Below are positions 1,659 through 40,302 of a stretch of DNA of 40,302 nt, in pieces (position 1 is the stretch's first letter; each line of letters starts with the position of its first letter). The DNA lies in the IMG/VR virus record IMGVR_UViG_2654588006_000003; one strand, written 5' to 3'. A model generated the notes under the pieces. The model did no database searches and was not told the origin of the DNA. It was given only the letters and a program-made list of their open reading frames with translations. Source of the stretch: a virus (Duplodnaviria; Heunggongvirae; Uroviricota; Caudoviricetes). Both the position numbers and the translations under genes were made by a program.

Positions 1659-4130
1659 TTAAGAATCAGCCTGACTCGGGATCAGTTTTTGCCAGATAAC
1701 TGAAACGTATTTTGCCTGGTAACGGGCGTCATCAAGTGCATTATGGCGCTCACCTTCGAATGGAATAGCCGTTCTGGCATCGAAGTCTATGGCTTTCCCC
1801 AGCTCAACGATTGTGCGTACATCGCGATCGTTGTAGTAACGCCACGGGCAGGGGATCCCCTGCCGTTCGTATGAACGGCGCAAAATCGTGTTGTCGAAGT
1901 TGGCTCCATTTCCCCAAACCTGAACAAAAAATTCACCGGAGTTTTCGTCGATAAATTCTCGCAATTGTAACAGTGCATCATCTAACGGGATTTCATCGGT
2001 CATAATGGCAGATTGCGCTTCGCGTGATTGCTTAAGCCACCATTTAATGGTGTCCCGATCAATGACTCCGCCAGCAGTTTCCAGATCGATAGTCTTACTA
2101 AATTCCGGTCCCATATCTCCGGTTTGCGGATCGAAAAATATTGCACCTATTGAGATGATCGGGGCATCAGGATTTTTTCCCATGGTTTCAAGGTCGATCA
2201 TTAGATGGTCACACGTCCTGCTGGTGGATGTGATTTCGTGATGACCGTTCACCTTAATTGGGTGATCTGCCGTCTCGCCAGTTTCATTATCGCTATTGTG
2301 ATGCTGATTGCCGCCAGTGTTCTCCTTGTGTGGATGTTCAGCGCCTTCCATTTCCTCCGGATCATCTTCCTGAACTTCAACCTGATACTCTTCATCGAAT
2401 GTTTCTTGGTATGTTGCGTCGCCCATCACCGCGCCACAATCAGGGCAGTTGCCGCCGCCGGTCTGACCGCAGGCGGTGCAGACTTTTTCCACTTCCTGTT
2501 GCGCTACTGGTTCAGGCTGTTTCGTTTCTGGCTCGTTTTGTAACGCATTTGGACTGTTTTGTTCCGCTTTTTGGTAGTTCCGTTCCGATTCATGCTGGTT
2601 CTGGTTCACAGAATCGCGGGTCTGGAGCCCCTTAACCCATTTCGGATCATTCGGGTCACTAATCCCTTCAACAAATTCACCACGTGATGCAGCAAGCAAC
2701 TTATCGGCGTCAGGCTGGCTGATATTGGCTGCCTGCATAATTTTGTTTACTTCGTCAGCGGTAACTTTTATCGGCTCTGGTTGTTCTGAATCTTCAGCGG
2801 TATCTACATTTTGCGGTAAGCCCGTGTATGTGCCATTTTTTCGGGCAAAATATTCTTCTTTTGTGATTTCAGTGGCGCCAGCAGCCAGTGCCTTATCCAG
2901 ACCAGAGAGTTTGTTTGCGCGACCGTATTTTTCTCCGTCCTTATCTGCGAAGAGGAAATAGAACGGCCCCTCACGCTCTACAGATGGTTCAGCTTCCGGC
3001 GCGGTTTCATTTTTTGGGATATCAGATACCTCAGTTTCCACTGCATCAGTTTGTGTTTCTGATGACTGGAGAACATCAACAGTGCCCAGGTCTGTTTCTT
3101 CATTCTCAAACACGCCCTTTGTCGTCAGGTATTCGCAGATATATTTGTTCAGTGCTACGGGATCTTTGTGAATGTCGATCGGACGCTCACGGACAAGGCC
3201 AAAAATAGTTTGGCGGTCGTAGCGAAGGGCATCAGGCTGTTTGCGCATTGATGCCGAGATACGCTTCCAGTCTTCGCGGTCGTTGTCGATAACTTCTTTT
3301 TTTGCCCAGCGATGGATGCTGCCGTCAATGTTTCCGGCATCCACATCACTAGGCCAGAGAGCGTAGGCCAGTTCGTCATCCAGTGTTTTCCATGTCTGCT
3401 TGTATTCGCGATGAATGGCAGCAATGACCGGGCTGATTTTTCCTGTTGAATTTTCAGTGTACTGTTGATTGGCTCTGGCGCGGGCGAGATCAACAACAGA
3501 CGTGTATTTTCCGGTTTCCTTGCGTTCACCTTCGCGACGTTTTTTCCAGATGCGCATCTCTGCCTGAATTTCGGGCCATTTAGCACCAGGAATACATTTA
3601 TGCTTAACCCACCCAATGGCGTGCAACTTAAGCTCCGGATACATGGCGTTAACTTCTGGCATTTTCATCAACGCTTCAACGATATGTCCGTCGAATGTTG
3701 CCATGTCTTCCTGCAACAATTCCTGTGCGCTAATAACCATATCAACGGTGATGTTTTCACATGTGTCGAACTTAACCATGACAGCGTTCTGTACTTCAGG
3801 GGCCAGCTTGTCAAAAGTGACGTTCATCGGATCGGATTCAGTCTCAACCGGGACAAAAGAAGCAGACTCCTCATCCCAGCGGTTTTCCTGCATATATTCA
3901 GCATCCCATGAATCGAGGGCAGGGCGGGGTATGCCAGGTTTATCCTCGCAGACAATAAATTTATAAGCGCAGTCCTGAGCAGCCGGATAATGTTCCAGGA
4001 ATTGCCAGTGAAATTTTGCTCGAGCACGGCGTTCGTCGCCAGCTTCAATGGCTGTGGCTACAGCCACAGCGCCTTCTTCCCTTGTTGCCAGTTCGTCAGG
4101 AATAGCGGCGCAAATAAAGACTTTACTCAT
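1659..4130 (-). CDS. ydfE: Exonuclease family protein, full-length ydfE-like, with C-terminal DnaQ/DEDDh 3'-5' exonuclease domain
   Basis: ORF track 1659..4166; start placed at internal ATG 4130 (MSKVFICAAIP) with upstream GAGG. C-terminus carries Exo I (MIDLETMG), Exo II (VWGNGANFDNT) and Exo III (HNALDDARYQAKY) motifs; central CxxC...CPDC zinc ribbon. N-terminus matches K-12 YdfE as recalled. Confidence 0.8.
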   Translation of the reverse strand: MSKVFICAAIPDELATREEGAVAVATAIEAGDERRARAKFHWQFLEHYPAAQDCAYKFIVCEDKPGIPRPALDSWDAEYMQENRWDEESASFVPVETESDPMNVTFDKLAPEVQNAVMVKFDTCENITVDMVISAQELLQEDMATFDGHIVEALMKMPEVNAMYPELKLHAIGWVKHKCIPGAKWPEIQAEMRIWKKRREGERKETGKYTSVVDLARARANQQYTENSTGKISPVIAAIHREYKQTWKTLDDELAYALWPSDVDAGNIDGSIHRWAKKEVIDNDREDWKRISASMRKQPDALRYDRQTIFGLVRERPIDIHKDPVALNKYICEYLTTKGVFENEETDLGTVDVLQSSETQTDAVETEVSDIPKNETAPEAEPSVEREGPFYFLFADKDGEKYGRANKLSGLDKALAAGATEITKEEYFARKNGTYTGLPQNVDTAEDSEQPEPIKVTADEVNKIMQAANISQPDADKLLAASRGEFVEGISDPNDPKWVKGLQTRDSVNQNQHESERNYQKAEQNSPNALQNEPETKQPEPVAQQEVEKVCTACGQTGGGNCPDCGAVMGDATYQETFDEEYQVEVQEDDPEEMEGAEHPHKENTGGNQHHNSDNETGETADHPIKVNGHHEITSTSRTCDHLMIDLETMGKNPDAPIISIGAIFFDPQTGDMGPEFSKTIDLETAGGVIDRDTIKWWLKQSREAQSAIMTDEIPLDDALLQLREFIDENSGEFFVQVWGNGANFDNTILRRSYERQGIPCPWRYYNDRDVRTIVELGKAIDFDARTAIPFEGERHNALDDARYQAKYVSVIWQKLIPSQADS

Positions 4131-4222
4131 TTGTTTTAACCTCATGACAGATTTAAGGATGAACAAATCCCTGCCATTGCTGGCATATAAGAATGAAACC
4201 GGATATTTATTACGGAACTGTT

Positions 4223-23187: not shown

Positions 23188-25087
23188 CAGGCTGCGGCAT
23201 TTTGTCCGCGCCGGGCTTCGCTCACTGTTCCGGCCGGAGCCACAGACCGCCGTTGAATGGGCGGATGCCAATTACTATCTCCCGAAAGAATCCGCATACC
23301 AGGAAGGGCGCTGGGAAACACTGCCCTTTCAGCGGGCCATCATGAATGCGATGGGCAGTGACTACGTCCGCGAGGTGAATGTGGTGAAGTCTGCCCGTGT
23401 TGGTTATTCCAAAATGCTGCTGGGTGTTTATGCCTACTTCATAGAGCATAAGCAGCGCAACACCCTTATCTGGTTGCCGACGGATGGTGATGCCGAGAAC
23501 TTTATGAAAACCCACGTTGAGCCGACCATCCGCGATATTCCGTCGCTGCTGGCGCTGGCTCCGTGGTATGGCAAAAAGCACCGGGATAACACGCTCACCA
23601 TGAAGCGTTTTTCCAATGGTCGTGGCTTCTGGTGCCTGGGCGGTAAAGCGGCAAAAAACTACCGTGAAAAGTCGGTGGATGTGGCGGGTTATGATGAACT
23701 TGCTGCCTTTGATGAGGATATTGAACAGGAAGGCTCTCCGACGTTCCTGGGCGATAAGCGTATTGAAGGCTCGGTCTGGCCAAAGTCCATCCGTGGCTCC
23801 ACGCCCAAAGTGAGAGGCACCTGCCAGATTGAGCGTGCAGCCAGTGAATCCCCGCATTTTATGCGTTTTCATGTTGCCTGCCCGCACTGCGGGGAGGAGC
23901 AGTACCTTAAATTTGGCGATAAAGAGACGCCGTTTGGCCTCAAATGGACGCCGGATGACCCCTCCAGCGTGTTTTATCTCTGCGAGCATAACGCCTGCGT
24001 CATCCGTCAGCAGGAGCTGGACTTCACTGATGCCCGTTATATCTGCGAAAAGACCGGGATCTGGACCCGTGATGGCATTCTCTGGTTTTCGTCATCCGGT
24101 GAAGAGATTGAACCGCCTGACAGCGTGACCTTTCACATCTGGACGGCGTACAGCCCGTTCACCACCTGGGTGCAGATTGTCAAAGACTGGATGAAGACGA
24201 AAGGGGATACGGGAAAACGTAAAACCTTCGTGAACACCACGCTCGGTGAGACGTGGGAAGCGAAAATCGGTGAACGTCCGGATGCTGAAGTGATGGCAGA
24301 GCGGAAAGAGCATTATTCAGCGCCCGTTCCTGACCGTGTGGCTTACCTGACCGCCGGTATCGACTCCCAGCTGGATCGCTACGAAATGCGCGTTTGGGGA
24401 TGGGGGCCGGGTGAGGAAAGCTGGCTGATTGACCGGCAGATTATTATGGGCCGCCACGACGATGAACAGACGCTGCAGCGTGTGGATGAGGCCATCAATA
24501 AAACCTATACCCGCCGGAATGGTGCAGAAATGTCGGTATCCCGTATCTGCTGGGATACTGGCGGGATTGACCCTACCATTGTGTATGAACGCTCGAAAAA
24601 ACATGGGCTGTTCCGGGTGATCCCCATTAAAGGGGCATCCGTCTACGGTAAGCCGGTGGCCAGCATGCCACGTAAGCGAAACAAAAACGGGGTTTACCTT
24701 ACCGAAATCGGTACGGATACCGCGAAAGAGCAGATTTATAACCGCTTCACACTGACGCCGGAAGGGGATGAACCGCTTCCCGGTGCCGTTCACTTCCCGA
24801 ATAACCCGGATATTTTTGATCTGACCGAAGCGCAGCAGCTGACTGCTGAAGAGCAGGTCGAAAAATGGGTGGATGGCAGGAAAAAAATACTGTGGGACAG
24901 CAAAAAGCGACGCAATGAGGCGCTCGACTGCTTCGTTTATGCGCTGGCGGCGCTGCGCATCAGTATTTCCCGCTGGCAGCTGGATCTCAGTGCACTGCTG
25001 GCGAGCCTGCAGGAAGAGGATGGTGCAGCAACCAACAAGAAAACACTGGCAGATTACGCCCGTGCCTTATCCGGAGAGGATGAATGA
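23162..25087 (+). CDS. A: Terminase large subunit, lambda gpA-type (641 aa)
   Basis: ORF track; length and sequence ([43 protein letters not shown]...) match lambda A. Confidence 0.95.
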
Positions 25088-26448
25088 CGCGACAGGAAGA
25101 ACTTGCCGCTGCCCGTGCGGCACTGCATGACCTGATGACAGGTAAACGGGTGGCAACGGTACAGAAAGACGGGAAAATCCTGCAGGCAGATTACAACACG
25201 CTGATGGCGGCGGCGAAAAAGGACTATGAAGCGACGCTGAAAAAGCCGAAACAGTCCGGCGTGAAGGTGTCTGCGGGCGATCGTCAGGAAGACAGTGCTC
25301 ATGCTGCCCTGCTGACGCTTCAGGCTGAACTCCGGACGCTGGAGAAGCATGCCGGAGCAAATGAGAAAATCAGCCAGCAGCGCCGGGATTTGTGGAAGGC
25401 GGAGAGTCAGTTCGCGGTACTGGAGGAGGCGGCGCAACGTCGCCAGCTGTCTGCACAGGAGAAATCCCTGCTGGCGCATAAAGATGAGACGCTGGAGTAC
25501 AAACGCCAGCTGGCTGCACTTGGCGACAAGGTTACGTATCAGGAGCGCCTGAACGCGCTGGCGCAGCAGGCGGATAAATTCGCACAGCAGCAACGGGCAA
25601 AACGGGCCGCCATTGATGCGAAAAGCCGGGGGCTGACTGACCGGCAGGCAGAACGGGAAGCCACGGAACAGCGCCTGAAGGAACAGTATGGCGATAATCC
25701 GCTGGCGCTGAATAACGTCATGTCAGAGCAGAAAAAGACCTGGGCGGCTGAAGACCAGCTTCGCGGGAGCTGGATGGCAGGCCTGAAGTCCGGCTGGAGT
25801 GAGTGGGAAGAGAGCGCCACGGACAGTATGTCGCAGGTAAAAAGTGCAGCCACGCAGACCTTTGATGGTATTGCACAGAATATGGCGGCGATGCTGACCG
25901 GCAGTGAGCAGAACTGGCGCAGCTTCACCCGTTCCGTGCTGTCCATGATGACAGAAATTCTGCTTAAGCAGGCAATGGTGGGGATTGTCGGGAGTATCGG
26001 CAGCGCCATTGGCGGGGCTGTTGGTGGCGGCGCATTCGCGTCAGGCGGTACAGCCATTCAGGCCGCTGCGGCGAAATTCCATTTTGCAACCGGAGGATTC
26101 ACAGGAACCGGCGGCAAATATGAGCCAGCGGGGATTGTTCACCGTGGTGAATTTGTCTTCACGAAGGAGGCAACCAGCCGGATTGGCGTGGGGAATCTCT
26201 ACCGGCTGATGCGCGGCTATGCCACCGGTGGTTATGTCGGTACACCGGGCAGTCTGGCTGACAGCCGGTCGCAGGCGTCCGGGACGTTTGAGCAGAATAA
26301 CCATGTGGTGATTAACAACGACGGCACGAACGGGCAGATAGGTCCGGCTGCTCTGAAGGCGGTGTATGACATGGCCCGCAAGGGTGCCCGTGATGAAATT
26401 CAGACACAGATGCGTGATGGTGGCCTGTTCTCCGGAGGTGGACGATGA
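25084..26448 (+). CDS. In-frame fusion of head-tail joining protein W N-terminus (about 30 aa) to tape-measure protein H C-terminal part (about 424 aa)
   Basis: Starts [30 protein letters not shown] (lambda W start, overlapping A stop), then continues as a Gln/Ala-rich tape-measure-like sequence ending GGLFSGGGR with ATGA overlap to M, as at the lambda H/M junction. Confidence 0.8.
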
Positions 26449-28847: not shown

Positions 28848-31800
28848 ATGGGTAAAGGCAGCAGTAAGGGGCATACCCCGCGCGAAGCGAAGGACAACCT
28901 GAAGTCCACGCAGTTGCTGAGTGTGATCGATGCCATCAGCGAAGGGCCGGTTGAAGGTCCGGTGGATGGATTAAAAAGCGTGCTGCTGAACAGTACGCCG
29001 GTGCTGGACAGTGAGGGGAATACCAATATCTCCGGTGTCACGGTGGTGTTCCGGGCCGGTGAGCAGGAGCAGACTCCGCCGGAGGGATTTGAATCCTCCG
29101 GCTCCGAGACGGTGCTGGGTACGGAAGTGAAATACGACACGCCGATCACCCGCGCCATCACGTCGGCAAACATCGACCGACTGCGCTTTACCTTCGGTGT
29201 GCAGGCACTGGTGGAAACCACCTCAAAGGGGGACCGGAATCCGTCGGAAGTTCGCCTGCTGGTTCAGATACAGCGTAATGGTGGCTGGGTGACGGAAAAA
29301 GACATCACCATTAAGGGCAAAACCACCTCGCAGTATCTGGCCTCGGTGGTGGTGGATAACCTGCCGCCGCGCCCGTTTAATATCCGGATGCGCAGAATGA
29401 CGCCGGACAGCACCACAGACCAGCTGCAGAACAAAACGCTCTGGTCGTCATACACCGAAATCATCGATGTGAAACAGTGCTACCCGAACACGGTACTGGT
29501 CGGCGTACAGGTGGATTCGGAGCAGTTCGGCAGCCAGCAGGTGAGCCGTAATTATCATCTGCGCGGGCGTATTCTGCAGGTGCCGTCGAATTATAACCCG
29601 CAGACGCGGCAATACAGCGGTATCTGGGACGGAACGTTTAAACCGGCATACAGCAACAACATGGCCTGGTGTCTGTGGGATATGCTGACCCACCCGCGCT
29701 ACGGCATGGGGAAACGTCTTGGTGCGGCAGATGTGGATAAATGGGCGCTGTATGTCATCGGCCAGTACTGCGACCAGTCGGTGCCGGACGGCTTTGGCAG
29801 CACGGAGCCGCGCATCACCTGTAATGCCTGGCTGACCACACAGCGCAAGGCGTGGGATGTGCTCAGTGATTTCTGCTCGGCGATGCGCTGTATGCCGGTA
29901 TGGAACGGGCAGACGCTGACGTTCGTGCAGGACCGACCGTCGGATAAGGTGTGGACCTATAACCGCAGTAATGTGGTGATGCCGGATGATGGCGCGCCGT
30001 TCCGCTACAGCTTCAGCGCCCTGAAGGACCGCCATAATGCCGTTGAGGTGAACTGGATTGACCCGGATAACGGCTGGGAGACGGCGACAGAGCTTGTGGA
30101 GGACACGCAGGCCATTGCCCGTTACGGTCGTAATGTCACGAAGATGGATGCCTTTGGCTGTACCAGCCGGGGGCAGGCACACCGAGCCGGGCTGTGGCTG
30201 ATTAAAACGGAGCTGCTGGAAACGCAGACCGTGGATTTCAGCGTCGGCGCAGAAGGGCTTCGCCATGTACCGGGCGATGTTATTGAAATCTGTGATGATG
30301 ACTATGCCGGTATCAGCACCGGTGGTCGTGTGCTGGCGGTGAACAGCCTGACCCGGACGCTGACGCTTGACCGTGAAATCACGCTGCCATCCTCCGGTAC
30401 CACGCTGATAAGCCTGGTTGACGGAAGTGGCAATCCGGTCAGCGTGGAGGTTCAGTCCGTCACCGACGGCGTGAAGGTGAAAGTGAGCCGTGTTCCTGAC
30501 GGTGTTGCTGAATACAGCGTATGGGGGCTGAAGCTGCCGAGGCTGCGCCAGCGACTGTTCCGCTGCGTGAGTATCCGTGAGAACGACGACGGCACGTATG
30601 CCATCACCGCCGTGCAGCATGTGCCGGAAAAAGAGGTCATCGTGGATAACGGGGCGCACTTTGACGGCGAACAGAGTGGCACGGTGAATGGTGTCACGCC
30701 GCCAGCGGTGCAGCACCTGACCGCAGAAGTCACTGCAGACAGCGGGGAATACCAGGTGCTGGCCCGCTGGGACACGCCGAAGGTGGTGAAGGGCGTGAGC
30801 TTCCTGCTTCGCCTGACCGTGGCAGCGGATGACGGCAGTGAGCGGCTGGTCAGCACGGCCCGGACGACGGAAACCACTTACCGCTTCACACAACTGGCGC
30901 TGGGGAACTACAGGCTGACAGTCCGGGCGGTAAATGCGTGGGGGCAGCAGGGCGATCCGGCGTCGGTATCGTTCCGGATTGCCGCACCGGCAGCGCCGTC
31001 GCGGATTGAGCTGACGCCGGGCTATTTTCAGATAACCGCCACGCCGCATCTTGCGGTTTATGATCCGACGGTACAGTTTGAGTTCTGGTTCTCGGAAAAG
31101 CGGATTGCGGATATCAGGCAGGTTGAAACCACAGCACGCTATCTTGGCACGGCGCTGTACTGGATAGCCGCCAGTATCAATATCAGGCCGGGCCATAATT
31201 ATTATTTTTACGTTCGCAGTGTGAACACCGTTGGCAAATCGGCATTCGTGGAGGCTGTTGGTCAGCCGAGTGATGACGCATCCGGCTATCTGGATTTTTT
31301 CAAAGGCGAGATAGGGAAAACCCATCTGGCTCAGGAGCTGTGGACGCAGATTGATAACGGTCAGCTTGCGCCTGACCTGGCTGAAATCAGGACATCCATT
31401 ACGGATGTCAGCAATGAAATCACACAGACCGTCAATAAGAAACTGGAAGACCAGAGTGCAGCGATCCAGCAGATACAGAAGGTTCAGGTTGATACAAATA
31501 ATAATCTGAACAGCATGTGGGCTGTGAAGCTGCAGCAGATGCAGGACGGACGCCTTTATATTGCGGGTATCGGTGCCGGTATTGAGAACACCCCCGACGG
31601 CATGCAGAGTCAGGTGCTGCTGGCGGCAGACAGGATTGCGATGATTAATCCTGCAAATGGCAACACAAAACCGATGTTTGTTGGTCAGGGTGATCAGATA
31701 TTCATGAATGAAGTGTTCCTGAAATATCTGACGGCTCCCACCATTACCAGCGGCGGTAATCCTCCTGCATTTTCCCTGACACCGGACGGAAAGCTGACCG

Positions 31801-32327
31801 CTAAAAATGCAGATATCAGTGGCAGTGTGAATGCGAACGCCGGGACGCTCAACAACGTTACGATAAATGAAAACTGTCAGATTAAAGGGAAACTGTCAGC
31901 CAACCAGATTGAAGGCGATATTGTCAAAACAGTGGGTAAGGCTTTCCCGCGGGACTCCCGGGCACCGGAGCGGTGGCCATCAGGGACCATTACCGTCAGG
32001 ATTTATGACGATCAGCCGTTTGACCGGCAGATTGTTATTCCGGCGGTGGCATTCAGCGGTGCTAAACATGAGCGGGAGAATAACGATATTTACTCCTCAT
32101 GCCGCCTGATAGTGAAGAAAAATGGTGCTGAAATTTATAACCGTACCGCGCTGGATAATACGCTGATTTACAGTGGTGTTATTGATATGCCAGCTGGTCA
32201 CGGCCACATGACGCTGGAGTTTTCGGTGTCAGCATGGCTGGTAAATGACTGGTATCCCACAGCAAGTATCAGCGATTTGCTGGTTGTGGTGATGAAGAAA
32301 GCCACCGCAGGCATCAGTATCAGCTGA
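28848..32327 (+). CDS. J: Central tail fibre / host specificity protein J (1159 aa)
   Basis: ORF track; N-terminal and central regions match lambda J as recalled ([34 protein letters not shown]...); fibronectin-like repeats; C-terminal part appears divergent. Confidence 0.95.
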
Positions 32328-32394: not shown

Positions 32395-32994
32395 ATGCGT
32401 AAAGTTTGTGCAGCCATTTTGTCCACAGCCATCTGTCTGGCCGTATCCGGTGCGCCTGCATGGGCGTCTGAGCAGCAGGCCACACTGAGCGCAGGGTATC
32501 TTCATGCCCGTACGAACGCTCCCGGCAGCGATAATCTGAACGGGATTAACGTGAAATACCGTTATGAGTTTACGGACACGCTGGGGCTGATTACGTCATT
32601 CAGTTATGCCAACGCTGAAGATGAGCAAAAAACGCATTACAGCGATACCCGCTGGCATGAAGATTCCGTGCGTAACCGCTGGTTCAGCGTAATGGCGGGG
32701 CCGTCTGTGCGCGTGAATGAATGGTTCAGCGTGTATGCGATGGCGGGTGTGGCTTACAGCCGTGTGTCGACTTTCTTCGGGGATTATCTCCGCGTAACTG
32801 ACAACAAGGGGAAAACGCACGATGTGCTGACCGGAAGTGATGACGGTCGCCACAGCAACACGTCTCTGGCGTGGGGGGCTGGCGTGCAGTTTAACCCGAC
32901 CGAATCCGTGGCCATTGATATTGCTTATGAAGGCTCCGGCAGTGGTGACTGGCGCACTGACGGTTTCATCGTGGGTGTCGGTTATAAATTCTGA
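32395..32994 (+). CDS. lom: Lom-like outer membrane beta-barrel protein (Ail/Lom family), 199 aa
   Basis: ORF track; signal peptide [24 protein letters not shown] and C-terminal ...GVGYKF beta-barrel terminus; position after J as in lambda. Confidence 0.9.
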
Positions 32995-33019
32995 TTAGCC
33001 AGGTAACACAGTGTTATGA

Positions 33020-33049
33020 CAGCCCGCCGGCTCAGGCGGGCTTTTTTGT
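33020..33049 (+). terminator. Rho-independent terminator after lom
   Basis: agcccgcc-ggctca-ggcgggct stem followed by a T6 run. Confidence 0.7.
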
Positions 33050-33058
33050 GGGGTGAAT

Positions 33059-36000
33059 ATGGCAGTAAAGATTTCAGGTGTACTGAAAGACGGCACAGGA
33101 AAACCGGTACAGAACTGCACAATCCAGCTGAAAGCAAAACGTAACAGCACCAGGGTGGTGGTGAACACGCTGGCCTCAGAAAATCCGGATGAAGCCGGGC
33201 GTTACAGCATGGACGTTGAGTACGGTCAGTACAGCGTTATTCTGTTGGTGGAGGGATTCCCGCCGTCACATGCCGGGACCATCACCGTGTATGAAGATTC
33301 TCAACCCGGTACGCTGAATGATTTTCTCGGTGCCATGACGGAGGATGATGCCCGTCCGGAGGCACTGCGCCGTTTTGAACTGATGGTGGAAGAGGTGGCG
33401 CGTAACGCGTCCGCGGTGGCACAGAACACGGCAGCCGCGAAGAAGTCAGCCAGCGATGCCGGCACATCAGCCCGTGAGGCGGCAACCCATGCGACTGATG
33501 CTGCAGGCTCAGCACGTGCAGCCAGCACATCAGCCGGGCAGGCCGCGACGTCGGCTCAGTCAGCGTCTTCCAGCGCAGGAACGGCATCAACAAAGGCTAC
33601 TGAAGCATCAAAAAGTGCTGCCGCTGCAGAGTCCTCAAAAAGCGCGGCGGCTACCAGTGCCGGTGCGGCGAAAAAGTCAGAAACGAATGCCGCAGCGTCA
33701 CAACAATCAGCAGCCACTTCTGCATCCACCGCGACTACGAAAGCGTCAGAAGCTGCCACCTCAGCCCGGGATGCGGCGGCCTCAAAAGAAGCAGCGAAAT
33801 CATCAGAAACGAACGCATCCTCGAGCGTCAGTAGCGCAGCTTCCTCGGCAACGGCGGCAGCAAATTCCGCGAAGGCGGCAAAAACGTCCGAGACGAACGC
33901 CAGGTCTTCTGAGACGGCAGCGGGACAGAGCGCCTCAGCTGCGGCAGGCTCAAAAACAGCGGCTGCGTCGTCTGCCAGTACCGCGTCAACAAGTGCCGGG
34001 CAGGCCTCAGCCAGTGCCACCGCCGCCGGAAAATCGGCAGAAAGTGCCGCATCGTCTGCTTCAACAGCCACAACGAAGGCTGGCGAAGCCACTGAACAGG
34101 CCAACGCAGCAGCGAGGTCAGCTTCCGCAGCGAAGACATCCGAAACGAACGCGAAAGCGTCGGAAACCAGCGCAGAATCCTCAAAAACGGCTGCCGCATC
34201 GTCCGCCAGTTCGGCGGCGTCATCGGCCTCATCGGCGTCTGCTTCAAAAGATGAGGCGACCAGACAGGCATCAGCAGCGAAAGGCAGCGCCACGACGGCA
34301 TCCACGAAGGCAACAGAGGCTGCTGGCAGTGCGACGGCGGCAGCACAGAGCAAGAATACGGCAGAATCCGCAGCAACGCGCGCCGAGACAGCAGCTAAAC
34401 GGGCAGAGGATATTGCATCCGCCGTGGCGCTTGAGGATGCGAGCACGACGAAAAAGGGGATAGTACAGCTCAGCAGTGCGACCAACAGTACGTCTGAAAC
34501 GCTGGCGGCAACGCCAAAGGCAGTAAAATCAGCCTATGACAATGCAGAGAAACGTCTGCAGAAAGACCAGAACGGCGCTGATATACCCGATAAGGGACGC
34601 TTCCTGAACAACATTAACGCGGTCAGTAAAACAGACTTTGCTGATAAGCGTGGTATGCGTTATGTGCGGGTTAACGCTCCTGCAGGTGCAACATCTGGAA
34701 AATATTACCCTGTTGTTGTTATGCGTTCTGCTGGCTCAGTAAGCGAACTGGCATCAAGGGTCATTATCACCACGGCAACGCGAACCGCAGGCGATCCGAT
34801 GAATAACTGCGAGTTTAACGGATTTGTTATGCCTGGTGGCTGGACTGACAGGGGGCGTTATGCTTATGGAATGTTCTGGCAATATCAAAACAATGAACGA
34901 GCCATCCACTCAATAATGATGAGTAATAAGGGCGATGATTTGCGCTCTGTGTTCTATGTTGATGGCGCTGCTTTCCCTGTTTTTGCGTTTATCGAAGATG
35001 GCCTGTCAATATCCGCACCTGGTGCTGATCTCGTTGTTAATGATACGACCTATAAGTTTGGGGCAACAAATCCAGCGACTGAATGTATCGCGGCGGACGT
35101 TATCCTTGATTTTAAGAGTGGGCGTGGTTTTTATGAGTCTCATTCGTTAATCGTTAACGATAATTTGTCGTGCAAAAAACTTTTTGCCACAGACGAAATT
35201 GTAGCGCGTGGTGGTAATCAGATTCGAATGATAGGTGGGGAGTATGGTGCATTATGGCGTAATGATGGCGCTAAAACTTACCTGCTGCTTACCAATCAAG
35301 GTGATGTTTATGGTGGCTGGAATACATTAAGACCGTTTGCTATTGATAACGCAACCGGCGAACTGGTTATTGGAACCAAACTGTCCGCAAGTCTGAACGG
35401 TAATGCATTAACAGCAACAAAGCTGCAAACGCCAAGACTGGTTTCTGGTGTTGAGTTTGATGGTTCCAGAGATATTACTTTAACCGCCGCGCATGTGGCT
35501 GCTTTTGCCAGAAGGGCAACGGATACATATGCCGATGCGGATGGTGGCGTTCCCTGGAATGCCGAATCAGGTGCTTACAATGTCACCCGCTCTGGCGACA
35601 GCTATATTCTGGTTAACTTCTATACCGGAGTCGGAAGTTGCCGGACCTTGCAGATGAAGGCGCATTACAGAAATGGTGGTCTGTTCTACCGTTCTTCAAG
35701 AGACGGTTATGGTTTTGAGGAAGACTGGGCAGAAGTTTATACCTCGAAAAATCTTCCACCAGAAAGCTACCCAGTCGGCGCACCAATCCCGTGGCCATCA
35801 GATACCGTTCCGTCTGGTTATGCCCTGATGCAGGGGCAGGCTTTTGACAAATCTGCTTACCCGAAACTTGCAGCCGCTTATCCGTCAGGCGTGATCCCTG
35901 ATATGCGTGGCTGGACGATTAAGGGCAAACCTGCCAGTGGTCGGGCCGTATTGTCTCAGGAACAGGACGGCATTAAATCTCATACCCACAGCGCCAGCGC

Positions 36001-36421
36001 ATCCAGTACAGATTTGGGGACGAAAACCACATCGTCGTTTGATTACGGCACTAAATCCACGAATAACACCGGGGCACATACACACAGTGTGAGCGGCTCT
36101 ACAAACTCGGCTGGAGCACACACACACTCACTAGCCAACGTGAACACGGCTAGTGCTAACTCCGGTGCTGGTAGTGCATCAACAAGATTGTCTGTTGTGC
36201 ATAATCAAAACTATGCAACATCATCTGCTGGCGCACATACCCACTCACTGTCCGGCACTGCTGCAAGCGCAGGTGCACACGCGCATACTGTCGGTATTGG
36301 TGCTCATACGCACTCCGTTGCGATTGGTTCACATGGACACACCATCACCGTTAACGCTGCTGGTAACGCGGAAAACACCGTCAAAAACATCGCATTTAAC
36401 TATATTGTGAGGCTTGCATAA
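33059..36421 (+). CDS. stfQ: Side tail fibre protein Stf (about 1120 aa)
   Basis: ORF track 33053..36421 with ATG at 33059; long Ala/Ser/Thr-rich fibrous repeat region; C-terminal His-rich GAHTHS repeats; followed by tfa. Confidence 0.9.
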
Positions 36422-36996
36422 TGGCATTCAGAATGAGTGAACAACCACGGACCATAAAAATTTATAATCTGCTGGCCGGAACTAATGAATTTATTGGTGA
36501 AGGTGATGCATATATTCCGCCTCATACAGGTCTGCCAGCAAACAGTACCGATATTGCACCGCCAGATATTCCGGCTGGCTTCGTGGCTGTTTTCAACAGT
36601 GATGAGTCATCGTGGCATCTCGTTGAAGATCATCGGGGTAAAACGGTTTATGACGTGGCTTCCGGCAACGCGTTATTTATTTCTGAACTCGGTCCGTTAC
36701 CGGAAAATGTTACCTGGTTATCGCCGGAAGGGGAGTTTCAGAAGTGGAACGGCACAGCCTGGGTGAAGGATACGGAAGCAGAAAAACTGTTCCGGATCCG
36801 GGAGGCGGAAGAAACAAAAAACAACCTGATGCAGGTAGCCAGTGAGCATATTGCGCCGCTTCAGGATGCTGCAGATCTGGAAATTGCAACGGAGGAAGAA
36901 ATCTCGTTGCTGGAAGCATGGAAAAAGTATCGGGTATTGCTGAACCGTGTTGATACGTCAACTGCACAGGATATTGAATGGCCAGCACTGCCGTAG
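36421..36996 (+). CDS. tfaQ: Tail fibre assembly protein Tfa (191 aa)
   Basis: ORF track; start overlaps stf stop; sequence recognised as the TfaR/TfaQ family. Confidence 0.9.
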
Positions 36997-37093
36997 GGTA
37001 AAACATATAAATTCTATAATTAGATGTATCTTTCCATTTACGGCAAGGAAGGGGGCTTGGAAGACGTAAAGCATCTCACACCGAGATTATTTT

Positions 37094-37684
37094 TTATATG
37101 TCAGGTGTCTGAAGTTTTGCTTTGGCTCTTAAAATGGTTTGCCGCGAGGTTTTGAATTCCCGGGCAATGGCACTTATACTTACACCTGACTTAATTCGTT
37201 CGAATACCACCTGTTTCTGTTCTTCATTTAACACAGGTGGTCGACCAAAACGTTTCCCTGCGCCGCGGGCTCTTACTATCCCGGAATGAGTGCGTTCAAG
37301 TAAAAGGTCTCGTTCAAATTCAGCGACTGCTGAAATTACTTGCATCATCATTTTTCCTGTTGGACTGGTCAGGTCAATGCCACCCAATGCTAAGCAATGC
37401 ACTCTGATACCTGTTTCGGTCAGTTGTTCCACTGTTTTCCTGATATCCATTGCATTACAACCAAGGCGATCCAGTTTTGTCACAATCAATTGATCACCAC
37501 ATTTCAGGCGAGCAAGCAACCGGTTAAAACCAGGACGCTCACTGGTTGCTGCTGAGCCGCTAATGTGTTCTTCGATTATTTGCTGAGGTTTGATTTTAAA
37601 ACCTGCACTTTCGATTTCCCGGCGTTGATTTTCGGTGGTCTGATCCAGCGTTGATATCCGACAGTAAGCAAAAATTCGAGACAT
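37094..37684 (-). CDS. pinQ: Pin-family serine DNA invertase (196 aa)
   Basis: ORF track; N-terminal catalytic Ser motif (YCRISTLDQ) and C-terminal HTH; convergent with tfa. Confidence 0.9.
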
Positions 37685-38000
37685 AGTGAGACTCTATACG
37701 AAATTGGTGTTCATATCATAATGCATCTCAGAAAATAATTATGATTATTTTTGTGCATATTTGTATGTACACGTTCGAAAATAAACGAATGCGTATGCAA
37801 CCCCGTAATTTTGGTGAGACCCAAAATCGATTTTGTGAAAAATGGCTTTAACTCGGTTTGTTTTTCGAGTTCCGGGCGGACTCAAGGAAGAAGAATAGTG
37901 TTGCGTGTTATTTTAACCAGATTTCAAGTTGTTTGGTCGTGGAAAAGTGGAGCAAAATGTTGTTAAAGTGGAAAAATGATAAAAAAGTAAGTTTATTATA

Positions 38001-38234
38001 TTACATTTTACCATTTAAATTTTGGTTGTCTTTAAGAACTGATATCGCTGTTTGTAATAATTCTTTGTTATCCAGCCATGATTTTTTCTTTATGTTTCCT
38101 TCAATGTAATCAAGCAATGTTCTGGTATTGATAGGTCTTCCCTGTTTTGCTACTTCCACTACAGCATCCCCTAGGATAATTCTTACTTCAGGAAGCTGCG
38201 CAGGGAACCACTTTAGGGTGTCTTTTGATTTCAT
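38001..38234 (-). CDS. ydfK: YdfK/YnaE-family small protein (77 aa)
   Basis: Internal ATG (MKSKDTLKWFPAQLPEVRIILGD...) of ORF 38001..38267; sequence recognised. Confidence 0.75.
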   Translation of the reverse strand: MKSKDTLKWFPAQLPEVRIILGDAVVEVAKQGRPINTRTLLDYIEGNIKKKSWLDNKELLQTAISVLKDNQNLNGKM

Positions 38235-39018
38235 GAAGATATTCCTTAAAATATTATTGATTTTCATTGCGATATTGTATGTCTGATTCAGGATATGTTG
38301 ACTTATACATCGGTTTTGTCTGGGTTATTGGATATGCCAATCCCTAATTTTATTAGGGCATGACTAAAAATGCTGAATATGATAAGGAGAGAAGTGATTA
38401 TCAGTATGCTGTTCATATAGCCTCGAATTAGTAATGTGTTATATATGATATAGTTGACAATTTTTATCTTGGGTGTTCTTAAAGTTCGTAGATAAACATT
38501 GTCGTTTCAGGTATACAGGAATGCTAACAGGTGGCGGCAAAAATCAGGCGGTTTATGGCGCAATCTGAAGTGGCAACTGCAAACTATCTTATGCAGAGAC
38601 TCTACACGGATTGGGTTTAAAAGTATACATAGATAACAATTTTTATCTGAAGAAGAAAAATATCAAGGTGATATAGCCTATATGCCTTTGATGCGGAGGA
38701 ATGAATGTGATGGGAGTGATGTATCTGAATAGTTGAAAAACCGCAGACACGCCTTATGCAAGAACGTGCTGCGGTTGGCTGGTAAATTTTTCGATAGTGC
38801 GAGTATTGAATGATTTCCAGCCGTTATTGATTTTACGCGTAAATCCATGAAAAAACTACTTATCTGTTGGGGAGTTTTTTGGGGCATATATGGGACAGAA
38901 ATAGGCCCCAGATAGACACTGAGATCGAACTTAGGATGCTTTTAAAAAAATGCAACTATCTGAAAAAACCTAGAAAACGCCAAGGAAACCACAGGATGGG
39001 AAAAAACACCTGTGAATT

Positions 39019-40302
39019 ATGGATTTCCAGTTATATTCGCTCGACGCAGCGTTGGTGTTTCATGAAATATTTTTTCCTGAATCATCAACGGCAATGGCGT
39101 TAATTTTGGCAATGGGAACCTACGGTGCAGGTTATGTGGCGCGTATTGTCGGAGCATTTATTTTCGGCAAAATGGGCGACAGAATAGGGCGTAAAAAAGT
39201 GCTCTTTATTACCATCACCATGATGGGGATCTGTACCACCTTAATTGGTGTGTTACCGACCTATGCACAGATTGGTGTTTTTGCCCCCATCTTGCTGGTG
39301 ACGCTGCGTATTATTCAGGGGTTGGGTGCAGGTGCGGAAATTTCCGGTGCCGGTACGATGCTGGCGGAATATGCACCAAAAGGTAAGCGCGGAATTATCT
39401 CCTCATTTGTAGCTATGGGAACTAACTGCGGAAGCTTGAGCGCAACGGCAATCTGGGCCTTTATGTTCTTCATTCTCAGTAAAGAGGAACTGCTGGCGTG
39501 GGGATGGCGTATACCGTTCCTGGCGAGCGTTGTCGTGATGGTCTTTGCTATCTGGTTACGTATGAATCTGAAAGAAAGCCCGGTCTTTGAGAAGGTTAAT
39601 GACAGCAACCAACCCACAGCAAAACCTGCACCTGCTGGTAGCATGTTCCAGAGCAAATCCTTCTGGCTGGCAACAGGGCTGCGTTTTGGTCAGGCGGGTA
39701 ACTCCGGGTTAATTCAGACTTTCCTTGCAGGCTATTTAGTGCAGACGTTATTGTTTAACAAAGCAATTCCAACAGATGCATTGATGATTAGTTCGATTCT
39801 CGGCTTTATGACCATTCCGTTCCTTGGTTGGTTATCCGATAAAATTGGTCGCCGGATCCCGTATATTATTATGAATACCTCCGCGATTGTGCTGGCATGG
39901 CCAATGCTTTCTATCATTGTAGATAAAAGCTATGCCCCGAGCACCATTATGGTTGCACTGATTGTGATTCATAACTGTGCGGTGCTGGGATTATTTGCTC
40001 TGGAAAACATTACCATGGCAGAAATGTTCGGCTGTAAAAACCGCTTTACCCGGATGGCTATTTCTAAAGAAATTGGTGGTCTTATCGCTTCCGGTTTTGG
40101 TCCTATCCTGGCGGGTATTTTCTGCACCATGACGGAATCCTGGTATCCGATCGCCATTATGATCATGGCATATTCAGTAATTGGTTTAATCTCTGCGCTG
40201 AAAATGCCAGAGGTGAAAGACCGTGATTTAAGTGCGCTGGAAGACGCTGCGGAAGATCAACCGCGTGTTGTAAGAGCTGCGCAACCTTCCAGAAGTCTGT
40301 AA
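39019..40302 (+). CDS. ydfJ: MFS metabolite:H+ symporter family transporter, N-terminally truncated (host gene at prophage junction)
   Basis: ORF track, 427 aa; multiple TM segments and MFS motif GKMGDRIGRKK; by alignment logic to ProP-like transporters it starts inside TM1, with an in-frame stop directly upstream (39013..39015). Confidence 0.85.
   Translation: MDFQLYSLDAALVFHEIFFPESSTAMALILAMGTYGAGYVARIVGAFIFGKMGDRIGRKKVLFITITMMGICTTLIGVLPTYAQIGVFAPILLVTLRIIQGLGAGAEISGAGTMLAEYAPKGKRGIISSFVAMGTNCGSLSATAIWAFMFFILSKEELLAWGWRIPFLASVVVMVFAIWLRMNLKESPVFEKVNDSNQPTAKPAPAGSMFQSKSFWLATGLRFGQAGNSGLIQTFLAGYLVQTLLFNKAIPTDALMISSILGFMTIPFLGWLSDKIGRRIPYIIMNTSAIVLAWPMLSIIVDKSYAPSTIMVALIVIHNCAVLGLFALENITMAEMFGCKNRFTRMAISKEIGGLIASGFGPILAGIFCTMTESWYPIAIMIMAYSVIGLISALKMPEVKDRDLSALEDAAEDQPRVVRAAQPSRSL

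Follow-up and report, generated by a model that had tools for sequence, protein, structure and literature searches.

An intact StfR-type side tail fibre gene in a defective lambdoid prophage and a residue-level map of its domains

The open reading frame at 33059..36421 of the window, i.e., of the whole 40,302-nt stretch of viral DNA that was analysed, is the StfR-type side tail fibre gene, which is well known from E. coli prophages and is intact here. As such it is already known and ordinary. The gene very probably encodes a lambdoid side tail fibre of this type, a modular homotrimer by homology, that works in the way proposed below, and the interpretation of the ORF in the original prediction is supported as essentially correct. 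Little of this biology is new: the gene is an allele of a prophage gene already named in E. coli, and for every part of Stf there is a solved or modelled homologue (Ur-lambda Stf for the N-terminus and coiled coil, then Mu S, T4 gp34 and the tip of T4 gp37). The use of the analysis lies in a residue-level domain map of StfR-type fibres, for which the sequence anatomy, homologies, conservation pattern and helical prediction were obtained here. The features of the gene are the following.

33059..36421, plus strand: stf, side tail fibre gene, allele of Rac-type stfR, 1120 aa (ORF and stfR identity)
33059..33331, plus strand: StfN collar domain, aa 1-91 (9e7m match aa 1-94, E = 4e-51; phage_tail_N)
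33386..34435, plus strand: proximal shaft, 50 heptads A-x-x-A-x-x-S, aa 110-459 (periodicity, 21-nt spacings, AlphaFold2 helices)
33968..34282, plus strand: 315-nt (15-heptad) extra segment relative to lambda stf (one in-frame gap when aligned with lambda orf-401 at the DNA level; borders ambiguous within the repeats)
34376..34621, plus strand: Mu tail-fibre-S-like segment, aa 440-521, conserved motif at the shaft end (PDB sequence matches 8ju3, 5yvq)
35045..35344, plus strand: T4 gp34 C-terminal trimerisation-like domain, aa 663-762 (Pfam Gp34_trimer, E = 3.4e-27)
35483..35779, plus strand: second Mu-S-like segment, aa 809-907, running into the tip (8ju3 stretch 3, E = 1.6e-20)
35762..35974, plus strand: gp37-type collar, N-terminal part, aa 902-972, equal to gp37 811-881, D10 (Pfam Collar aa 907-954; 82% identity to gp37)
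35975..36367, plus strand: gp37-type needle, aa 973-1103, equal to gp37 D11, with seven His-x-His pairs (2XGF alignment, Phage_fiber)
36128..36235, plus strand: hypervariable distal loop between His pairs 3 and 4, aa 1024-1059 (low identity and conservation)
36368..36418, plus strand: C-terminal strand, aa 1104-1120, returning to the collar (94% identical to T4, 100% to lambda; invariant among homologues)

In the proposed working of the fibre, its trimeric state, its binding of metal and receptor and its need for a chaperone would be as in solved or studied relatives. The StfN collar domain would anchor the fibre on the tail, and a short linker would lead into the alanine-core shaft of about 50 heptads, which would be roughly 52 nm long if trimeric and would keep the tip far from the tail. 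The shaft would be followed by a middle module related to the Mu tail fibre S and T4 gp34, after which the last 219 residues would fold as a collar and needle of the T4 gp37 type. Within the needle, the histidines would form seven layers of six (one pair per chain), each layer binding a metal ion, which is iron in T4, and so riveting the three intertwined chains. The loop of aa 1024-1059 at the far end of the needle would touch the host outer-membrane receptor, which is a porin and/or LPS core in relatives. This contact would give fast reversible adsorption, and the central fibre J would then engage its own receptor. Tfa would act as a chaperone required for tip folding.

The assignment as a side tail fibre, as originally predicted, was borne out by the Pfam model phage_tail_N (PF08400, E = 3.2e-71, full-length model match at aa 1-134), by the position of the gene after J and lom and before a Caudo_TAP gene, by the stfR annotation of the matching gene in >1200 complete E. 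coli genomes, and by a distance of only 15 aa from Rac StfR. The Pfam domains on Stf are phage_tail_N, Gp34_trimer, Collar and Phage_fiber. Translation starts at ATG 33059, as the solved N-terminal Stf chain 9e7m aligns with residues 1-94 from its first residue onward; the in-frame GTG at 33053 was rejected as an artefact of mechanical ORF listing. Compared with the K-12-like Rac stfR gene, identity is 98.0% at the nucleotide level, with 15 amino acid substitutions and 0 indels. Rac StfR likewise has 1120 aa, the same domain order and an identical tip loop. The codon differences between the two genes comprise 50 synonymous and 15 non-synonymous changes, which suggests purifying selection on stf.

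The gene is flanked by the following features, of which the last marks the state of the prophage.

28848-32327: J, upstream of lom (ORF listing)
32395-32994: lom, between J and stf (Pfam Ail_Lom)
36421..36996, plus strand: tfa, tail fibre assembly chaperone, 191 aa (Caudo_TAP, E = 2.7e-43; PHROG 105 'tail fiber assembly')
37094..37684, minus strand: pinQ-type serine DNA invertase (Pfam Resolvase and HTH_7; annotated pinQ at 99.7% identity)
25084..26448: W'-'H fusion ORF, replacing the portal, capsid, tail-tube and most tape-measure genes

The order J-lom-stf-tfa is that of lambda, where stf also follows J and lom, and of Escherichia phage Turner (PP925837), a viable lambdoid phage with the arrangement J-lom-fibre (1119 aa)-tfa-invertase. 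The tfa start overlaps the stf stop. In K-12 Rac, stfR is likewise followed by genes for a 191-aa Tfa (TfaR) and a 196-aa Pin invertase (PinR). Both J and lom are intact here; in the K-12-like genome, an IS5-like element interrupts lom. The right flank, pinQ-ydfK-ynfT-ydfJ, is that of the Qin site, while the Rac site has ydfK-ynaM-uspF-ompN.

The host prophage is defective because of the W'-'H deletion. Having lost its head and tail-tube genes, the element by itself cannot build a virion to carry the fibre. The gene might thus be an idle relic in a dead prophage, intact by chance or recent descent and never assembled, an explanation that concerns its present use and not its identity and that is also in line with the location of the K-12 copy inside a defective prophage, Rac. 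However, the 1120 codons carry no frameshift despite the degenerately repetitive shaft, and the 50:15 ratio relative to Rac stfR is a sign of constraint. Infecting lambda acquires prophage stf/tfa regions by recombination (PMC3945230), and viable phage Turner has the same fibre design, the last 231 aa of its fibre being 99.6% identical to Stf and the tip loop identical. We consider disuse possible but rather improbable. As a working fibre gene in a defective prophage, stf would act only if supplied to a viable lambdoid phage or brought into one by recombination.

The boundaries of StfN and its role as fibre anchor at the gpV/gpM junction of the tail come from cryo-EM of Ur-lambda, in which the Stf model runs from StfN (1-91) through a linker to the coiled coil of aa 102-393 (PMC12617516). 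In the gene studied here, the corresponding tract had been described as an Ala/Ser/Thr-rich repeat of SETNA and AAKTS units at aa ~110-450. The tract is real, with 36% Ala, 22% Ser and 12% Thr in aa 101-460, but its period is 7: mean identity is 0.40 at lags that are multiples of 7 versus 0.19 elsewhere (z = 22 against 1000 shuffles). SETNA (four copies in Stf, at aa 207, 249, 277 and 361) and AAKTS (two copies) were rejected as repeat units, since they are recurring variants of the heptad. No higher-order unit longer than 7 residues was found in the shaft, where identity is flat over multiples of 7 up to 203.

Alanine occupies position 1 in 34/50 heptads and position 4 in 47/50, and serine occupies position 7 in 37/50. 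There is no register shift over the 50 heptads of aa 110-459. In the AlphaFold2 monomer model the shaft forms helices at aa 101-275 and 286-465 (mean pLDDT 70.9), and the hairpin is a monomer artefact. The shaft is predicted to be an alanine-core alpha-helical coiled coil, the counterpart of the trimeric coiled coil in the proximal part of Ur-lambda Stf, and by analogy with the cryo-EM/cryo-ET model of the latter it would be a parallel trimer. The distance between the anchors flanking the shaft is 359 aa here versus 254 aa in lambda, a difference of exactly 15 heptads. Among the best 120 database matches, which do not include lambda, shaft length is equal in 117, with 2 at -3 and 1 at +3, and lambda gave the only informative comparison of length. 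The shaft is a register-perfect heptad rod with an alanine core whose length offset from lambda is a whole number of heptads.

The low-complexity composition, the lack of any Pfam model matching the Ala/Ser/Thr tract and the unusually small alanine core could also be read as signs of a disordered linker or a beta-structured fibre. Such a structure is very unlikely in view of the uninterrupted register with alanine at position 4, the whole-heptad length difference from lambda and the helical prediction throughout the tract. Moreover, the lambda homologue appears as a rigid coiled-coil rod in cryo-ET and cryo-EM (PMC12617516).

Beyond the predicted coiled coil, Stf resembles the Mu tail fibre. 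Matches to Mu S chains in a PDB search were confined to aa 440-522 and 809-907 of Stf and did not include the tip. Homology to Mu S and Tfa U (5YVQ, 8JU3) covers both Mu-S-like segments and the C-terminus of Tfa, which matches Tfa U (chain 5yvq_B). Between these segments, PDB entries 4uxe and 5nxf match aa 706-776, overlapping the gp34-like domain. This domain belongs to a middle module (~aa 517-804) that phage Turner has exchanged for a different allele, in which most of its 140 differences from Stf lie. Ur-lambda Stf (orf-401 plus orf-314 in lambda PaPa), also accompanied by Tfa, has the N-terminal collar, linker, heptad shaft and gp37-type tip in common with Stf but lacks the ~300-aa middle module related to Mu S and gp34. 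We take lambda Stf to be 774 aa long, compared with 1120 aa here.

The tip is the part with the closest crystallised relative. Residues 902-1120 (219 aa) show 70% identity with the T4 gp37 tip 2XGF (E = 3.6e-87), with collar, needle, seven His-x-His pairs in the same order and C-terminal strand common to both. The D10 and D11 domain limits were taken from PMC6957217. In line with the comparison to T4 gp37 and lambda Stf that had been proposed, the tip is also 80% identical overall to that of lambda. T4 gp37 differs in being a long tail fibre of a virulent myovirus that is folded by gp38 and gp57A (PMC6957217).

The needle had been predicted to carry at least six GAHTHS repeats at ~36060..36330. 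These repeats are real, but there are seven pairs (aa 975/977, 1007/1009, 1021/1023, 1060/1062, 1074/1076, 1083/1085 and 1092/1094, with the first His codons at nt 35981, 36077, 36119, 36236, 36278, 36305 and 36332), the first of which (KSHTHS, nt 35981) lies upstream and was missed. Six pairs fit G[AS]HxH[ST], with starts at nt 36071-36326, and four fit the stricter motif that had been given. The Pfam model Phage_fiber (PF03335) scores 28.9 bits on the needle against a cut-off of 20, and its best stretch, aa 1002-1015, covers a GAHTHS unit. The likeness to the His-x-His metal sites of distal needles turned out stronger than originally supposed, as the seven pairs align one to one with gp37 H883/885, 915/917, 929/931, 966/968, 980/982, 989/991 and 998/1000. 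In gp37, seven iron ions lie coordinated along the needle, with H929/H931 as essential ligands (PMC6957217). Following 2XGF as described in the same paper, the Stf needle would have octahedral iron coordination with six histidines per layer in an intertwined trimer. A published paper on the T4/lambda tip family makes no mention of iron or StfR.

Absence of the His repeats from homologues would have spoken against this assignment; instead, each of the 14 paired histidines is kept in 119-120 of 120 homologue cluster representatives, while the non-paired H1048 is not conserved. The number of pairs varies, with 5-9 in each of 12 fibres from lambdoid, T4-like, P2-like and FelixO1-like phages; lambda has 8. 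In an AlphaFold2 monomer model of the C-terminal 231 aa (54-sequence alignment), mean pLDDT was 42.7 with almost no secondary structure. This could favour the view that the histidines serve at the surface in metal or receptor binding, or reflect composition by accident, instead of forming structural metal sites on the axis, but a poor monomer model is expected for an obligately intertwined trimer and speaks neither for nor against such sites. That view is highly improbable given the one-to-one match to the gp37 pairs within a domain of 70% identity, the shuffling result (mean 0.95 pairs in the shuffled C-terminal 220 aa, with 0/20000 shuffles reaching 7), and the near-invariance of the pairs beside a freely varying receptor loop between pairs 3 and 4.

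Divergence of the tip is limited to this loop, both in the T4/lambda comparison and among the 120 homologues. Residues 1024-1059 are 22% identical to T4 and 33% to lambda, where the loop is longer and unrelated, whereas the flanking parts reach 70-100%; conservation in the loop among the 120 homologues is 7-49%. The conserved flanks equivalent to gp37 812-931 and 966-1026 are both present, at 70-94% identity. The specificity region of gp37, 932-965, matches the Stf loop, and the LPS- and OmpC-binding residues of gp37 sit in its tip loop (PMC6957217). The receptor of lambda Stf is OmpC (PMC12617516). By analogy, aa 1024-1059 is presumed to be the receptor-contacting head. The determinant of receptor specificity is thereby narrowed to a loop of 36 residues, a result of use for engineering fibres and for predicting host range. 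It is a tentative idea that the loop shared by Rac and Turner binds some receptor different from both OmpC and the known LPS glucose, and that intact stf-tfa cassettes in defective prophages are selected as a recombination reservoir that changes the adsorption specificity of infecting lambdoid phages.

The invertase gene pinQ lies 97 bp downstream of tfa and is an orphan, with no invertible segment. The crossover core AAACCNNGGTTT, which we take to be the core consensus of gix and hix sites, was not found in 33000-38000 with up to 2 mismatches allowed. No convincing inverted repeats flank pinQ; those found are short, at most 88% complementary and inside coding sequence. Between stf and pin there is neither an inverted alternative fibre end nor an antisense fibre or tfa ORF, and tfa is single. 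An invertible segment at the locus, such as the Mu G segment with its alternative S/U ends, was accordingly rejected. Although the Pin-family enzyme is close by and published work links invertases with stf genes (PMC3945230), these results make it most improbable that the fibre belongs to a host-range switch of the Mu G, P1 C or e14 P kind, in which Pin flips alternative ends.

At the DNA level, the shaft repeats of stf are degenerate, with copies 60-88% identical and nearly all spacings multiples of 21 nt. Tandem Repeats Finder detected only two trivial arrays over stf and nothing substantial, because the repeats are too degenerate. The tract has 62% G+C and is built of GCN, TCN and ACN codons; it contains 0 stops in one alternative plus-strand frame and 1 in one minus-strand frame. 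As was foreseen from the sequence, the repeat DNA gives rise to long spurious ORFs, and annotators should be cautious with those that overlap the shaft.

33456..34463, plus strand: spurious ORF, 335 aa, alternative frame over the shaft
33556..34485, minus strand: spurious antisense ORF, 309 aa (GCN/TCN/ACN codon tract)
33828..34376, minus strand: spurious alternative-frame ORF, 182 aa (ORF listing)

Lambda has the same kind of historical annotation, orf206b within orf-401.

The open reading frame at 33059..36421 (+) is genuine and encodes 1120 residues (Stf). The start codon of stf is the ATG at 33059, since residues 1-94 match the solved N-terminal tail-fibre chain 9e7m from residue 1. The original prediction of a side tail fibre is borne out by Pfam domains, stfR annotation, near-identity to the Rac prophage gene, and the order J, lom, stf, Caudo_TAP tail-fibre assembly gene (tfa, with its start overlapping the stop of stf) and serine invertase. 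More than 1200 complete E. coli genomes have a gene annotated as stfR that matches stf DNA, the closest at 98.3% identity, and this type of fibre is already known.

Pfam domains of Stf
aa 1-134: prophage tail-fibre N-terminal domain (E = 3.2e-71)
aa 663-762: T4 gp34 C-terminal trimerisation domain
aa 907-954: phage tail Collar domain
over a GAHTHS unit: Phage_fiber repeat, 14 residues

Within its last 150 residues Stf has seven His-x-His pairs (first His at residues 975, 1007, 1021, 1060, 1074, 1083 and 1092), six of them in the form G[AS]HxH[ST]. These repeats had been recognised and counted as at least six; the first pair, KSHTHS (nt 35981), upstream of the range assigned to them, had been missed. 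After shuffling of the last 220 residues, the mean was 0.95 pairs and seven were reached in 0 of 20000 trials. Residues 902-1120 match the crystallised receptor-binding tip of T4 gp37 (2XGF; E = 3.6e-87, 70% identity), and in this alignment pairs 1-7, numbered from the N-terminal side, correspond one to one with gp37 H883/885, 915/917, 929/931, 966/968, 980/982, 989/991 and 998/1000. All seven gp37 pairs lie within needle domain D11, residues 882-1009 (PMC6957217). According to that paper, the needle coordinates seven iron atoms along its length, with H929 and H931 as iron ligands whose substitution by Ala is lethal. The likeness to needle metal sites proposed earlier extends to all seven pairs, and by analogy Stf may bind metal as well.

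The His repeats are conserved in homologues, as the original prediction required. Among 120 cluster representatives (73-97% identical), each of the 14 paired histidines is retained in 119 or 120, and the sole unpaired one, H1048, is not conserved. In a set of twelve fibres drawn from lambdoid, T4-like, P2-like and FelixO1-like phages, the number of pairs ranges from 5 to 9. An AlphaFold2 model of the tip as a monomer was unusable (pLDDT 42.7), as would be expected for an intertwined, metal-stabilised trimer.

Variation in the tip is restricted to residues 1024-1059, the loop joining pairs 3 and 4. Identity in this loop is 22% to T4 and 33% to lambda, with flanks at 70-100%, and it is 7-49% conserved among the 120 representatives. 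The loop corresponds to the gp37 specificity region 932-965, and it is there that the LPS and OmpC contacts of gp37 have been mapped (PMC6957217). Tips of the T4 and lambda type that have a chaperone gene next to them have already been described as a family, which counts more than 200 phage members (PMC9659904). Lambda Stf/Tfa and T4 gp37/gp38 are functionally interchangeable according to Montag et al. (1989), as cited in PMC3945230.

The predicted Ala/Ser/Thr-rich tract is present (36% Ala, 22% Ser and 12% Thr in residues 101-460) and is indeed repetitive, but its unit is a heptad rather than SETNA or AAKTS. Residues 110-459 form 50 heptads with zero register shifts, with Ala at position 1 in 34, Ala (47) or Val (3) at position 4, and Ser at position 7 in 37. 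Identity is 0.40 when the lag is a multiple of 7 and 0.19 otherwise (z = 22), and no period above seven residues was seen up to lag 203. As DNA, the repeat copies share 60-88% identity, with spacings nearly all multiples of 21 nt; Tandem Repeats Finder returned nothing substantial for stf. A single-chain AlphaFold2 model gave two long helices, residues 101-275 and 286-465 (mean pLDDT 70.9), joined by a hairpin that we regard as an artefact of single-chain modelling. A heptad coiled coil is supported for this tract, and in Ur-lambda the homologous region is described as the proximal coiled coil in a trimeric fibre, where it comes after the collar domain StfN (aa 1-91) and then a flexible linker (PMC12617516).

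Lambda stf lacks one in-frame block of exactly 15 heptads, the only difference in shaft length between the two. The repeat DNA had also been predicted to create spurious long ORFs; three were found. They occur because the tract (62% G+C, GCN/TCN/ACN codons) is nearly stop-free in two alternative frames, with 0 or only 1 stop. Lambda orf206b inside orf-401 is a historical annotation of like kind.

Features of the shaft DNA
33968..34282: 315-nt block absent from lambda stf
33456..34463 (+): alternative-frame ORF
33556..34485 (-): alternative-frame ORF
33828..34376 (-): alternative-frame ORF

In-register unequal exchange between the degenerate heptads could account for the 315-nt difference, as insertion or deletion alike. 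At about 0.15 nm per residue, the usual rise of a coiled coil, the Stf shaft would be about 52 nm long, roughly 16 nm beyond that of lambda.

By homology with its relatives, the fibre would be a trimer attached through StfN to the collar at the gpV/gpM junction, with the coiled coil pushing the distal fibre outward and the Mu-S-like and gp34-like modules acting as knobs or a hinge. Seven axial metal sites would hold the gp37-type needle together, and Tfa would fold the tip. The distal needle loop may bind an outer-membrane receptor reversibly, which would speed adsorption before J engages its own receptor.

The stfR gene of the K-12-like Rac prophage is equal in length to stf and 98.0% identical in DNA, and the proteins differ by 15 residues and 0 indels. 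Synonymous changes account for 50 of the 65 differing codons, which suggests that stf is under constraint. The viable lambdoid Escherichia phage Turner shares the J-lom-fibre-tfa-invertase layout, and the last 231 residues of its fibre are 99.6% identical to Stf, with another allele of the middle module (about aa 517-804). Such mosaicism is usual in tail-fibre genes.

The prophage occupies the Qin integration site, since its right flank pinQ-ydfK-ynfT-ydfJ (37000..40302) matches many E. coli chromosomes at 99.7% identity. Unlike this flank, full-length stf has no match above 98.3% among 5426 complete genomes. An 835-aa ORF adjoining the integrase (1659..4166, -) carries an Rv2179c-like 3'-5' exoribonuclease domain at its C-terminus, the only part of it that Pfam recognises. 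Portal, capsid and tail-tube genes are absent, and in one ORF residues 1-31 of lambda gpW run into the C-terminal portion of gpH, the tape-measure protein:

25084..26448 (+): gpW-gpH fusion ORF, 454 aa (Pfam gpW 1-30, Tape_meas_lam_C 228-302)

An in-frame deletion appears to have taken out the portal, capsid and tail-tube genes and most tape-measure genes; the prophage is therefore defective. Terminase A, L, K, J, lom, stf and tfa are intact, so stf survives whole within a phage that is dead, as it does in Rac. Recombination of prophage stf/tfa regions into infecting lambda is known (PMC3945230).

A pinQ-type serine invertase (37094..37684, -) lies directly 3' of tfa, across a gap at 36997..37093. 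An invertase-driven fibre switch was rejected: near stf-pinQ neither a second tfa nor an alternative fibre end was present, no convincing inverted repeats bounded an invertible segment, and the gix/hix-like crossover core AAACCNNGGTTT had no match with up to 2 mismatches in 33000-38000. As an invertase, pinQ is an orphan, and any target it has lies outside this region.

Among database proteins, P0127, P0155, P0173, P0219 and P0227 (300-400 aa; P0227 on 480 contigs) have a terminase, portal, Lom or ParB domain joined directly to a Collar and His-x-His tip. Their make-up suggests deletion-fusion remnants of degraded prophages in which only the fibre tip is kept. The N-terminal Stf fragments P0011, P0022, P0031 and P0036 are publicly named 'short-chain fatty acid transporter', an evident misannotation. 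Most Stf cluster representatives are labelled 'partial', which suggests that assemblies often break within stf.
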